A stretch of DNA of 64,000 nucleotides from Balanoglossus misakiensis (GCA_040954595.2 CM082596.2:3713025-3777024), one strand, 5' to 3'; numbered from the stretch's first letter, positions 27,601-33,600 are shown. Notes: a model not told the origin generated them from the sequence alone. Program-made: numbers and translations.

Positions 27601-30600
27601 TATGGATAAAAGTGATACTGCATTGTAGTTTTTATGAGAAATAAAACCAAAATGTCATATTCAAATCAGGCATCAACTGCTCGGACTTTTGCACTCAGAA
27701 TTCAGTATCTGAAAATTATTACACAACATTGAGGAAGAAAAAGAACTGTAAACAAACTACAATGACATGATGTTTGTTATGAAAAGAAAGGTTACAATCC
27801 AAGGATGGAAACGTTTGACAAGAGGTAGTCTCACACAGGAATTGACGGGAGAAATTGTCCAAAGAAGAACAAGTACAGTATGTGCGTAATTTTGAAGACA
27901 TTACATGAATAGTGTTGACATAGCAACAGCAAATTTTTAACATTGTGAGTTCCACACAGGATTTGTCAGTGGGGTTTGACATCGTCATTCACGTATTCAC
28001 TGGAGAGAATGGGTTTGTAACAGTCAATAGCATTCAGATGTAAAATGCAAAATTCAAATAGTAGATTGTATCAAAAGATACTGCTGAAGAAACTATTTAA
28101 AGAAAACATGTAGCTTGATGGATTACATATGTATCAAAAAATCAGAATATGGTTGGTAATATGTAAAGCTAGTATCATAATGCTGAAAAGAAGTTAGTAA
28201 AATACATTGGTTATTGCATTACAATGTTGAAAAAAACTTGCTATCAGAAAAACACATTGCAGAGTATCATTACTTTTACTGAAGTGAAAAAGTATATATC
28301 ATAACTTTTGTATATGATAAACATTCCATTGACTAGATATTTCAAAACTATGATAACTGCAACACGTACTTCACTAGCAATGATTATGTATGTTCCACAA
28401 AATCAAACATTCCAAGTATCTAGAATATATCTTTCATCAAATGCATGCACACAAGCCTTCCAAATGGAAAAAACAACACCACAGGCTAATTATCAAAACA
28501 CCTACAAAAATAGATATAAATTTGCTATACAAGAATAATCTAACTTGGATAAATGAATAATCTTTGGTGTACCCTCTACACTTACTCTTTTTAGCGCTTT
28601 GGCAAGAAAAATCTAGCACAGAAAGAATATTGGCAAGGTGTGTTTTGTGTCTCTTGACAGTTTCGCACATTTCATATCTCTTAAAATTATCACTGTTCAA
28701 AGTAACTTCAGTATAATGTTTACAAATACAGGACTTTTCTTTGAAAAATGAACATTCACATGTTCACCATGACAACAGCTAAGAAAACCAACTTTCAGAC
28801 AGAAACATTCTGGTCACCTGCAAGTCATGTGTTTCTTGTTCAATTTTCACTTCAGATTCAACAACCATTTTGGTCATTCTTCTTTTCACTTTGTGTTAAA
28901 AGTCAAGCACGGCCTATAACTTTCAGGACTTAAAACATAAGAGTTCTCTTGTAGCACCAAGTGTTGGCATAAATGAATTTGGACAGGAATCCCATTGCAC
29001 ATTTATCATTTTTTAAACTTATGCTGATACAGTCTTCACAACATTTTATGGACTGAAGATTTCCATGTTTTTTAACGTCTATCATGGTCCCAAAGACAGA
29101 TCCATTCAAGTTTAAATTTTCATGTACTTTCCCTCCATTTCAATGTAACAAACAACAACATAAAAACAACAGAATCACTTTCTCTTGACAATTACATGTA
29201 ACCCACAAACCTTACTGAAACAGTCTTAGACTTAGAGTGTTTGTTCACACACAAAATATGATAGTTAAGAAATCTTGCCATTATCTACAAATCTTACTGA
29301 TGAAATAATCATATTTTGAGAAGATCTGAAGTATATTTTGCAACCAGTTCAGATCATTTATGCTGACAATGATTATAATGTACCTTAACTTGCAATGCTA
29401 AAAATCTAGTAAAACTTATAATTGCAAAAAATAAAGGATATTCCATTACAAAGAAGTTAGGACATAATGTTGATATAAATGTATAAAAGAACTTTTTTTT
29501 CTTATTTGGTCTTTTTTCCCATTTTTATTAACGTTTTTTTTTAATATACAAAGCTATCCTTATATTAACAGGTAATATTGTTGAATTTTTAAAAAGTCAG
29601 TTACTGGATGTGCATTTGTAAACCAACGGAAGGGCTGGAATGTGGGGGAGAGTGAGTGCAGTTTGAGATCACAGGTAATTTAGCAGAGTTTAACTAGTTC
29701 TGAAGATTTTCCTTTTTTGTAAATTTTTTACCATTTGCGGGTCTTCAAAATGCCAGCAGATTTTTTCCATTTTTTGTAATTATTTCATACATAATGTAAA
29801 CAATTTTATTTAACTTTTTCTCCAAAACGATTTAGCCATCGCTTTTGGTAACTGGACCATTTCACATTATTTTTATTCCACATAGTGCGCTCTTTCCATA
29901 TACATTCTCTTCTGGCCAACGAGAGTTTGGCCGTCGCCATCACCATGGTGCAGCATCTCCATGCTGTAGAACTTTTCATACACAGCCCCAGTGGGCTGCG
30001 GTTTGCCATTCGGTTGTGGAACCACAGTAACCTGAGCCTTCAAGGGAGCGTCGGGTTGGGGTTGCTGGTTTGGAGGGGGTTGGCTGTGAGGCTGAGGGGC
30101 AATTGATACTTGTGGCCGAACAGGGTGTGGAGGGGCAGTCGAAGTCACAGTTGGTGGCTGCAAAGGCTGGGGTCCTGGTTTACTGACTAGATATTGAGGC
30201 AAAACTGGAACAGGGGATTGTTCTAGAATCACCAAGACGTGAGGGTCTTCAGGCAAACGAATCAGATTGACCACAATGAGAGGGAAATCATCCACATTCA
30301 TACGGAGATGATTAACATGCCTTTCATCGGGTGGTTTTTCTATTATTATATACTTTTCAACGACATAGTCAGGTTTCTGTGGTTTCACAACTCGGATGGC
30401 TCTGCGAACAGGTGGGGCTTGGTAGAAACTGACTTTGCTCAGTGGTTTATTTCTGTCTGGGCGTATGTGTGTTATCTCGGTGACTTCAGTGATGGTCTCG
30501 ACGCGCTCTTCCTGATCGCTGGAATAAGGGCTGGTTCTACTTGGCGTGCTGGTTCTACTTGGTGTGCTGTAGACATCAGGATCCCTCCGGATCGGTTTGA

Positions 30601-33600
30601 CTGGGATTGTTACAGTCTCCACATAAGGCTTCTCTGGGGGTTCTTCCTCGGGGGTGTCATCTGGCATGGGGATTGGAGGTTCCCTGTCCACGTTGATTGG
30701 AATAATCGGCATGATAGGAATTTCAATAGTCTCCACGACGCTTATCGGAGGTGGACTAACAGGCTGCTTAGCAGGTGGAAGATCTTTTGTGATGTATACA
30801 GGCTGCATTATCGGTATCGTTATGGTCTCTTTCACGCGATATTCTTGAGGCTCTGGTTCTGCAACATCAGATACTTCAGGCAGCATATCATCTTTTTTCA
30901 CCAGCTTGGGTTTGGGAACTTCCCTTTCAACAGGAATGGTACGGCTCACAGGGTGGAATATGACCTTCTGTATTGGAGGCTGTTCAAATTCTCTCGGGTA
31001 AGTAGGGTGAACAGGTAAACCCGCATATGGTCTTGGTCTCTGCGCTTCCTTGGGTTGGTCGGTGTCTATGTCCCAATGCATTGGTTTCGTTGGAACAGTT
31101 GGCATGGGGTAGCTTTTACTGAAACTATGAAATTCCAGAGGCTCGGTCTCTTCAGGTGGTGTTTCCACTGGGACAGGATGATCAACTTTGGGTTTTAGTG
31201 GACTAGTTGGATATATCGCAGGAGAATGCTTCTGAGGTTCGCCAACCTTTGGTGTTTCTTCTAGCTGGGTTGTCGGACCTCTCGGCATTGCGTACGTCTT
31301 GTGTGCTTGGAACTCTGGAGGCTTGACAACCTTTGGAGGTTCGGAAGGCTTTGTGAAAACCTTCGGAGGCTTGGGACTGTCATCCTTCCAATCAAGTGGC
31401 GCTGTTGGCCGTACACTTGGCATTGGGTATGTCTTCTCCACATGGTGTTCTGGCCTCTCTACAGGTCTTGGTCTTTCTTCGGGTCTGGGACTGTCAGCCG
31501 GCCAATCCGTATGGGTTGTAGCAACAGCCGGCATTGCGTATGTCTTCTTTGCTTGAAACTCAGGAGGCACCTGAACCTTGGGAGGTTCATGAAGCTTAGG
31601 CTGGTCAACTCTCCAATCCAGAGGTGTGGTTGCTACAGTGGGCATTGGATAAGTCTTCTCAGCATAGTAATCTGGTACCTCTTCAGTTATTGGTGTCTCT
31701 TCGGGTTTTGGGTCTGCCCATTCAACAGGGCTTGTCTGGTAAACAGGGATCACATGAGCCTTTTCTGCACGATACTCCTGTGGTTCGTCTTGTCTTAGTC
31801 TGTCTTGTGGTTTGTCTTCCTCTTCTGCTGATTGGCTGGCCCTGGCCACACCAGGTGTAAACTTCACCGGCCGATACTTGCGGGGTTCTTGAAGTTTATA
31901 GAGGTCAATATTCCAGTCCAGTGGCTTGGTTTCCACTGTAGGCATCCTGGATGCCTCGGTCACTGGGTATTCCTGGGGTTCATCCAACCATGATGCCTCT
32001 TCTGGCTTGTAGCTGTGGATGTCCCACTCCAGAGGAGTTGTTTCAATGGTTGGCATTGTGTAGACCTTTGGGACATCCTCTTCTTTTGGTAGATATTCTT
32101 TAGGTTCTACTAGAACTTCTTCAGGCTGGTAGCTTTTGAAATCCCGTTCCAGTGGCTTGGCCAAATCTTCCGGAACTTGAGCCGCTTCGTATATATGATA
32201 TTCTTCCGGGATCTTCTCTTGGGCTAATTCTTGTCTTTCTTCCCTGGAGAACGGTTCCAGCTGTTGCGGGGACTCTTCCGGGTGCCACGCTCTTGGTTCA
32301 AGCTCTTGCAGACTTGCTTCTTCCGGATGCTGCTGAGAAATGTACGGAACCCCTCCCTCTTCCCCGGAATATTTCTCCCTCAGTAAAGCATAGCTGTGCT
32401 CTGGACCTACCTGTTCAAGAAGTTCGTGATACTCTACAGAAATCTGCAACTTCTTGCTGTGGTCTTCAATCTGCATACTCAGTTCATTCCAGAACTTCTC
32501 CAGGTCTTCCAAGTCTTTCTTGATTTCATCACTGGCGTAGTGTTTGCCACTCAGCATGATGTGTGCAGAGCTCACAAACGTCTCATAGGCTTCTTTCAAA
32601 GGCTGAAAACAAACAAAAATATCTTTCAGTTTTCGCTACCCACTTCTCAGATTTATCTCTGTCAGTTTGCTTGTTTGAAATTCAAACTTCCCAATTGTTT
32701 AGTGTTTCCAGCCATTGTGGGCCCTGACATATGTTTTGGCAGAAAAGAAAACAATGCATGCAACTTTTATAACTTTTTCTGTATTCTATGTGTATAAACT
32801 TCAGTTTCTTATCAACTCACTATAATCTGTTCCAATACTTACCCTAATGGTCAGTAGCCAATGGTCAAACTTCTCCACAAACAGAGTCACGGTGTGAACA
32901 GAATCGCCATATTGACCCTTCATTCCATCCATGTCCTTCTTGGTGGCTTCCAAGATGCCAACCAACTGTAAAGAAATTTATTGACATCTGAGTGTTCAAT
33001 ACAATAGATACGATACGAGACAATACAATGCGATGCGATGCGATGCAACACGATACGATACGATACGATACGATACAATACAGAATATAGCATACCTTCT
33101 GTTTTTCCAACTCAAACTCCACCAACTGCATATGTTGTTGCAGTTTCTCTCTGTGTGTCCTCCAGTCTTGCAGCCACTGTTGTTTGCGGTTCTCTGTCTG
33201 TTGTAACACAGTGTCCATGCCTTGCTTGGCAGCAAGAACTGGATCCTGGTACATGTAAAAGAGCAATCTAATTAGATGAATCTAGGTCAACTAGAACATT
33301 TTCTTTTCTATTTTCCACATTCCATATCATTTAGACACAAATTGATTAAAGATTTACGAAGTTTTGTATGACTTACATATTGCCTAACTCTTGAAACAAT
33401 TTCAGACCCGATGTTGAAAGTGGTCCTAAAGAGATCAGACAAGTCATCTTTGCTCTTGTCGTGTTGCTGCAGCAATATCCTGGCTTCAGAGATGTGTGTT
33501 GGCAAGTCTGTTCTTCTGAATTCAATCTCCACTTTTTCCATCAAAGTTGTCAACTAGGAGGATGACAGGACAGAACATTAATTAAATTACCGTTACCGTT

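Follow-up and report, generated by a model that had tools for sequence, protein, structure and literature searches.

Does an exon that ends at a strong splice donor also serve, when that donor is ignored, as the last exon of a shorter transcript? This question is raised by a 64,000-nt stretch of Balanoglossus misakiensis DNA (GCA_040954595.2 CM082596.2:3713025-3777024; the window, hereafter), which on its minus strand carries, in order within 64 kb, a Sec14 domain, spectrin-like exons and an array of immunoglobulin (Ig) I-set domains. Within the spectrin part, the reading frame of a 192-nt exon stays open past its donor for another 845 codons, here called the tail. The best reading of this frame, to which we assign a probability of about 0.6 from the sequence, is that exon and tail together would form a composite terminal exon. 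All features of the spectrin exon and tail lie on the minus strand, and they are as follows (a slash marks an exon boundary).

32843..32965, minus strand: preceding constitutive exon, 123 nt, phase 0/0, with acceptor ctttacag/TTG and donor AGG/GTAAGT.
32603/32602, minus strand: acceptor of the 192-nt exon, ttttcag/CCT.
32411..32602, minus strand: 192-nt spectrin exon, 64 codons, phase 0/0, probably encoding the last helix of a spectrin repeat.
32405..32410, minus strand: donor of the 192-nt exon, GTAGGT (GT at 32410-32409), in the context CAG/GTAGGT.
29876..32410, minus strand: tail, a coding extension of 845 codons in frame with the spectrin exon and with 0 stops.
29873..29875, minus strand: TAA stop codon that ends the tail.

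The reading frame of the 192-nt exon is fixed by a phase-0 chain of four upstream exons (33998-33684, 33553-33377, 33245-33096 and 32965-32843), which we assembled by hand and which all have canonical AG/GT boundaries. The frame of the last of these, the 123-nt exon, runs on into the 192-nt exon. By itself the 123-nt exon has no Pfam match at an expectation value (E) of 10 or below; it probably supplies the initial portion of the spectrin repeat that ends in the 192-nt exon. The 192-nt exon alone matched the Pfam Spectrin profile PF00435 with an E of 3.4e-5 and 24.7 bits, below the curated cut-off of 29.9. The match places residues 9-53 on profile positions 60-104 of 105, within the final third of the repeat; thus, the exon probably encodes the last helix and its donor coincides with a repeat boundary. 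The neighboring exon 33998-33684 matched the same profile with an E of 1.8e-4 over positions 15-90. Among all GT sites in 32602-29873, the donor at 32410 had the top score on a simple consensus scale, and its use or non-use is predicted to decide between two forms of the product. The initial annotation had described just such a 192-nt spectrin exon and donor, and both the splice sites and the phase-0 exon chain bear this out.

Read from the acceptor, the frame encodes 909 residues, 64 in the exon and 845 past the donor, within a stop-to-stop open reading frame (ORF) of 920 amino acids at 29873..32635. The earlier count of about 845 further open codons was therefore correct, with the stop at TAA 29875-29873. 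Its companion claim, that such a frame is very unlikely to arise by chance, also held: the probability of 845 open codons is ∼3e-24 with the stop frequency of nearby noncoding DNA (0.062 per codon) and ∼1e-17 with the base composition of the tail itself, and stops occur only in the other frames (0 in frame versus 35 and 45 in the other sense frames; 13, 38 and 29 in the antisense frames). The same is seen locally, as each of eight 105-codon blocks has 0 in-frame stops versus 3-10 per other sense frame, and a codon-position signature is present in all eight blocks and hence along the full length of the tail. Specifically, GC content at the first, second and third codon positions (GC1, GC2, GC3) is 0.63/0.42/0.44, T at the first position has a frequency of 0.098, and tail GC3 is 0.444 versus 0.436 in the Ig exons and 0.32 in intron. 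One part of the initial annotation failed here, namely that the frame lies in AT-rich DNA; GC is 0.497 in 30001-32000 and only the surroundings are AT-rich (0.32-0.41, with 0.32 in 28001-30000). At eight donors of the gene checked by hand, the open read-through was 6, 23, 1, 22, 76, 13, 845 and 22 codons. The second longest, 76 noncoding codons past the donor of exon 33245-33096, is due to a (GTATC)n-like pentanucleotide microsatellite at 33040-33095 on the minus strand, directly after that donor. We also correlated relative synonymous codon usage of the tail with that of the gene's exons, but set this measure aside as uninformative, as intron pseudo-codons (0.63-0.81) exceeded the tail (0.53). 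From its open frame and base composition, the tail is very probably genuine coding sequence.

The tail had been called rich in P, E, K, V and T, and its composition agrees: P 17.9%, E 11.4%, V 8.9%, K 6.6% and T 6.5%, without Cys. It is acidic, with 98 K+R versus 138 D+E. Its sequence contains two families of peptide repeats, located as follows.

31055..32098, minus strand: array of the first repeat family, units of ∼35-37 amino acids with the core K-T-Y-P-M-P-T-V-x-T-T-P-L-D-W.
30446..30829, minus strand: second repeat family, four units E-T-[IV]-[TE]-[IE]-[PV] spaced ∼32-40 amino acids apart.

The first family has seven clear units, with W at tail residues 129, 166, 231, 266, 303, 341 and 446, and one further degenerate unit near residue 373; the units of the second (E-T-x-T-I-P) lie at residues 528, 560, 598 and 638. 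Motif counts exceeded those expected from 2000 composition-preserving shuffles for Y.MP (6 versus 0.13), MP[TSA][VI] (6 versus 0.07), [LMV][DE]W (5 versus 0.24) and PEE (9 versus 1.95), and the observed counts were reached in 0 of 2000 shuffles. The broader YxxP motif was not enriched (8 versus 6.7), Y.MP alone being enriched, and the idea of a Cas-like substrate domain was dropped. These peptide repeats are not DNA tandem repeats, since Tandem Repeats Finder reported only three short arrays in the region. When the 21 pairs formed by the seven units were pooled, the proportion of synonymous differences (pS) was 0.78, which is saturated, versus 0.39 for nonsynonymous differences (pN), and the 14-codon core showed mismatches of 0.34, 0.29 and 0.57 at the three codon positions. 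Similarity that is confined to the peptide level argues for long-standing translation and selection.

The description of the tail as PEVK-like stands only loosely. Composition is in its favor, but P+E+V+K is only 45% (0.447 over the tail; 0.35-0.53 in 60-residue windows), the ∼35-37-residue repeats have an aromatic and Met-containing core, and Pfam gave no match. Judged by composition and by a single-sequence AlphaFold2 model, the 845-residue tail is probably disordered. The model, of tail residues 515-845, had a mean predicted local distance difference test score of 39.7, a predicted template modeling score of 0.18 and four low-confidence strands (model residues 157-217), and was of insufficient quality for a fold search. 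Elasticity of the tail is unsupported; our guess is that the repeated Y-x-M-P...L-D-W and E-T-x-T-I-P motifs may act as multivalent docking sites and not as a pure entropic spring.

Translation most likely enters the tail from the spectrin exon, because the tail has no ATG before codon 119, its codons 1-118 are open and coding-like, and its frame is that of the exon. Specifically, codons 1-118 have 0 stops versus 5 and 3 in the other frames and a GC1 of 0.70. The first in-frame Met, at codon 119, is a conserved residue inside repeat unit 1, and the half of this unit upstream of Met 119 also matches the repeat consensus. Downstream, the frame runs past the 5′ splice site to an in-frame intronic stop, with AATAAA hexamers at and after it.

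29872..29877, minus strand: AATAAA hexamer overlapping the TAA stop, a candidate intronic polyadenylation signal (consensus match only).
29805..29810, minus strand: second AATAAA hexamer, 67 nt on and followed by T/GT-rich sequence (consensus match only).

There are 112 GT sites in 32410-29873, and the single internal site that fits GTRAG, at 30949 (CCT/GTGAGC), has a poor exon side. A transcript that retains the intron and is spliced further downstream carries a premature stop and is open to nonsense-mediated decay. Because of this, a productive tail isoform would need cleavage near 29.8 kb.

When the donor at 32410 is used, the transcript would instead continue into the following exons.

25754..25937, minus strand: next constitutive exon, with phase-0 acceptor aatcgcag/AGC and donor ATG/GTAAGC.
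24508..25311, minus strand: E-rich linker exon and first Ig I-set exon of the spliced form (ends approximate).

The first of these reads STEWYKESRQ..., the start of the next spectrin-like repeat, which extends into a second exon; in Pfam it has a weak Spectrin_5 match (E 0.018). The spliced order after donor 32410 is thus, in frame, one more spectrin repeat, the E-rich linker and at least ∼20 Ig I-set exons. The ORF at 24477-24755 matched I-set with an E of 6.4e-18, 26 of the 30 minus-strand ORFs in 0.3-24.8 kb matched it at E ≤ 0.001, and in a separate scan of seven proteins from the window both Ig-bearing ORFs did so. Among the ORFs scanned in 0.3-24.8 kb on this strand, none matched FN3 or a kinase. 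An Ig-linked form must, we infer, use donor 32410, since a spectrin repeat would be disrupted if the 192-nt exon were skipped.

In the reading we favor, a composite terminal exon, the donor at 32410 would be left unspliced in some transcripts, which would run on from the spectrin exon into the tail and end by cleavage at the AATAAA hexamers that overlap or closely follow the stop, with translation continuing from the spectrin exon through the tail to TAA. Both an Ig-linked and a tail form would then be made, the choice between them being set by competition between splicing and intronic polyadenylation. The tail-form product would comprise Sec14 and spectrin sequences, would be without the last spectrin repeat and all Ig domains, and would end in an 845-residue tail that is predicted to be acidic, proline-rich, Cys-free and probably disordered. 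The initial annotation had likewise opposed an Ig/titin-linked form to a truncated, Ig-less one. This is the natural reading of the coding tail, the top-scoring donor, the AATAAA hexamers and the in-frame spliced alternative, with both forms being predicted. The tail form is a plausible lineage-specific isoform and, as an early-terminating isoform of a gene in the titin neighborhood, a well-founded prediction. Several points weigh against it. The donor CAG/GTAGGT is near-consensus and favors splicing, so that a read-through form could be rare; both polyadenylation signals are mere consensus matches; a homolog of the tail is absent from the protein, structure, Pfam and metagenome-contig libraries that were searched; composition and a single-sequence AlphaFold2 model are weak evidence for disorder; and the repeat units were picked and aligned as peptides, which biases pN/pS downward.

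Four other accounts of the frame have to be weighed. In one, the window holds two genes: the tail exon would be the constitutive 3′ end of a Sec14-spectrin gene, and the downstream spectrin-Ig exons would be a unit of their own, with a first exon in the 3.9-kb spacer and with donor 32410 used only in rare spanning transcripts. Indeed, the 3.9 kb between the stop and the next exon is AT-rich (GC 0.32-0.36), long-term protein-level constraint on the tail is as expected for a main product, and bilaterian SESTD1, CCDC141 and titin are described as adjacent but separate genes with occasional spanning transcripts (PMC12198301). However, the exon at 25937 starts at a phase-0 acceptor with no start codon nearby and, a complete repeat having ended at 32411, directly opens the next spectrin repeat. 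Donor 32410 also resembles the other donors of the gene in being near-consensus, and no candidate first exon was seen in 25.9-29.8 kb, a stretch viewed as an ORF list only. We consider two genes unlikely, though the most probable of these four alternatives. A part of the tail could otherwise be an internal insert, spliced from an alternative donor within it to the acceptor at 25937 to give an Ig-linked form with a partial tail between spectrin repeats. The GTRAG site at 30949 is in phase 0 and hence in frame with the phase-0 acceptor at 25937, but its exon side, CCT, is poor, and in a frame rich in Val any GT would be expected to lie in phase 0. Moreover, the coding signature and the second repeat family run on for ∼360 codons past 30949 to the stop, which an AATAAA overlaps, and an insert of this kind seems improbable.

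Slightly less probable still is a gene nested in the intron, with a promoter and a start codon of its own, whose agreement in frame with the spectrin exon would be accidental. Long introns can harbor nested genes, and no relatives of the tail were detected; a tblastn search of the window with the tail returned only the tail itself and two matches at E 2.8 and 8.2. However, codons 1-118 offer no in-frame ATG even though they are open and coding-like, the first Met is embedded in a repeat unit that fits the consensus in its upstream half as well, and the frame passes through the donor unbroken by any stop. Finally, the frame could be open by chance or be a decaying relic without present function, as might be suggested by the lack of a tail homolog in the libraries searched. 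A chance probability of ≤1e-17, a codon-position signature over the whole length and repeats that are conserved as peptides while their synonymous sites are saturated make this very improbable.

The searches for homologs covered both the tail and the exon that precedes it. A word-index search with tail residues 65-909 against proteins of 499-1591 amino acids found no homolog among 7987 scored, and one with all 909 residues against proteins of 1592-4545 amino acids found none among 2601 scored. With phmmer, the 909 residues had 0 matches at E ≤ 0.001 among 1.84 billion representative proteins. The tail had no usable match in the ESM Atlas and 0 matches in the PDB at E ≤ 10; in Pfam at E ≤ 10 there were 0 matches for the tail and for its last 242 residues; and of 96 pattern matches in metagenome contigs, 0 were confirmed. 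The spectrin exon (residues 1-64) was also without a match in the word-index search of proteins of 499-1591 amino acids (E ≤ 10, none among 9 scored). It thus seems that these libraries contain no close relatives, and the blank searches say little about conservation of the tail. In the literature on hemichordate titin/connectin, nothing specific to this locus was found among the matches listed.

The upstream Sec14 exon, at 59.8-60.1 kb, matched the kalirin Sec14 chain 7ur2_A with an E of 3.9e-6 (ORF 59820-60128); this ORF alone had no Pfam match. Kalirin and Trio have many alternative 3′ ends. In one alignment block compared by eye, the minus-strand Sec14 segments 59820-60128 and 59239-59583 share 22 of 30 residues with Sk-SESTD1 from the acorn worm Saccoglossus, the corresponding counts being 16 of 30 with the sea-urchin and 12 of 30 with the amphioxus sequence (PMC12198301, supplementary file 2). 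Judged by this pattern, the DNA probably comes from a hemichordate or another ambulacrarian. The locus thus has an N-terminal Sec14 domain of Trio/Kalirin/SESTD1 type and a downstream same-strand Ig array, and the gene order Sec14-spectrin-Ig is the layout of connectitin (SESTD1-CCDC141-titin), described by Hanashima et al. (2025, PMC12198301) as Sec14, many spectrin repeats and numerous Ig domains on one strand. In that account, SESTD1, CCDC141 and titin are proposed descendants of one Trio/Kalirin-like gene (PMC12198301). Splice phases would permit an in-frame junction of the Sec14/SESTD1-like part with the CCDC141-like part, of the kind that the connectitin model has, and compatible phases (54914 to 48436; 32411 to 25937) would allow all parts in one transcript. 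The SESTD1-like part has no terminal stop: a ∼600-nt exon at 54914-55514 on the minus strand, which carries an S/P/R/E-rich and probably disordered insert, ends at a phase-0 donor (GAG/GTAAGA), and the next spectrin-like exon, at 48314-48436 on the same strand and 6.5 kb on, opens at a phase-0 acceptor.

Among known systems, titin novex-3 (Nx3) is by analogy the nearest concept to the tail form. The comparison had been drawn in the initial annotation and is a fair one, as the novex-3 exon, TTN exon 48, likewise brings its own stop and polyadenylation signal and yields a short isoform (PMC13649281). Both cases involve a titin-family locus and a large alternative terminal sequence that gives, or for the tail is predicted to give, a much shorter isoform sharing the N-terminal part. 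However, novex-3 has an acceptor of its own, being a separate exon, and codes for six Ig domains with insertion sequences. The tail directly continues a constitutive exon beyond the donor, contains neither Ig nor any other Pfam domain and sits in the CCDC141-like spectrin part. In Drosophila, the short sallimus forms kettin and zormin also end early, before the distal part (PMC11081514, PMC13649281), and zormin is regarded as the counterpart of CCDC141 (PMC12198301). They resemble the predicted tail form as short isoforms of a titin-like locus, but are Ig-rich where the tail is without Ig. Vertebrate CCDC141, encoded beside titin, combines spectrin repeats with an Ig domain at its C terminus and has several isoforms with different C-terminal ends, in some of which the Ig is incomplete (PMC12657953). 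What varies among these mouse and human isoforms is a transmembrane segment and a portion of the Ig, not an 845-residue repeat tail. Connectitin shares the Sec14-spectrin-Ig order, and the available part of its description contains no alternative proline-rich terminal exon in the spectrin region (PMC12198301).

Like titin PEVK, the tail is P/E/V/K-rich, repetitive, low in hydrophobic core residues and part of a titin-related locus. Titin PEVK has a P+E+V+K content of ∼70% or more, with PPAK units of ∼28 residues or poly-E segments. The tail falls short of this content at 0.447, and its units are ∼35-37 residues long around a Y-x-M-P...L-D-W core, distinct from PPAK-type repeats or poly-E. Extensions added by composite terminal exons typically comprise few residues, and an 845-codon extension with conserved internal repeats is, in our judgment and not by count, unusually long for one. 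The general mechanism would be the same as that for which the terms composite terminal exon and intronic polyadenylation are used (PMC8559711, PMC5928244, PMC10960005), in which a 5′ splice site goes unused, an intronic polyadenylation site is used and the exon is extended to a new C terminus.

If both forms are made, a single choice between splicing and polyadenylation would uncouple Sec14/spectrin from an Ig/titin-like module in an invertebrate deuterostome. This would bear on the proposed descent of SESTD1, CCDC141 and titin from one connected gene, and intronic polyadenylation with a selected coding extension would be a concrete route by which such a gene could split. An orphan tail with motifs kept at the protein level is, in addition, a candidate new binding module. 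A bolder and rather unlikely proposal is that the locus represents an intermediate stage in the splitting of the ancestral connected Sec14-spectrin-Ig gene (connectitin), in which an intronic polyadenylation site with a long, selected coding extension would already give a separate Sec14-spectrin protein with a multivalent docking tail of its own, alongside the spliced, titin-linked form. The orphan Y-x-M-P...L-D-W array would then be a new type of adaptor module, cytoskeletal or sarcomeric, and confined to acorn worms or to them and their relatives.

The Ig part of the window and its noncoding DNA yielded some further observations. Ig I-set exons are dense on the minus strand of 0.3-24.8 kb, and for many domains the coding sequence is divided between two exons of half a domain each, the break falling at approximately profile position 30-47; introns measure roughly 0.3-1 kb. 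The first Ig exon (24474-24755, minus strand) ends at CATG/GTAAGT in phase 1, and read-through past this donor stops after 12 codons. The next ORF (23414-23680, minus strand) holds M-E-L-E-A-A-V-P-P-R-F and then the beginning of an I-set domain; its Met may serve as a titin-like start codon or may simply be internal, and a boundary between CCDC141-like and titin-like units may lie near 23414-24755. Simple repeats at 6945-7190, 19860-20000, 44745-45090 and 62040-62350, which are intronic or intergenic, are a source of false open frames within the window and yield long spurious ORFs with FIYL/LFVC runs, LYCIV runs, poly-I/H/D/M runs and poly-H.

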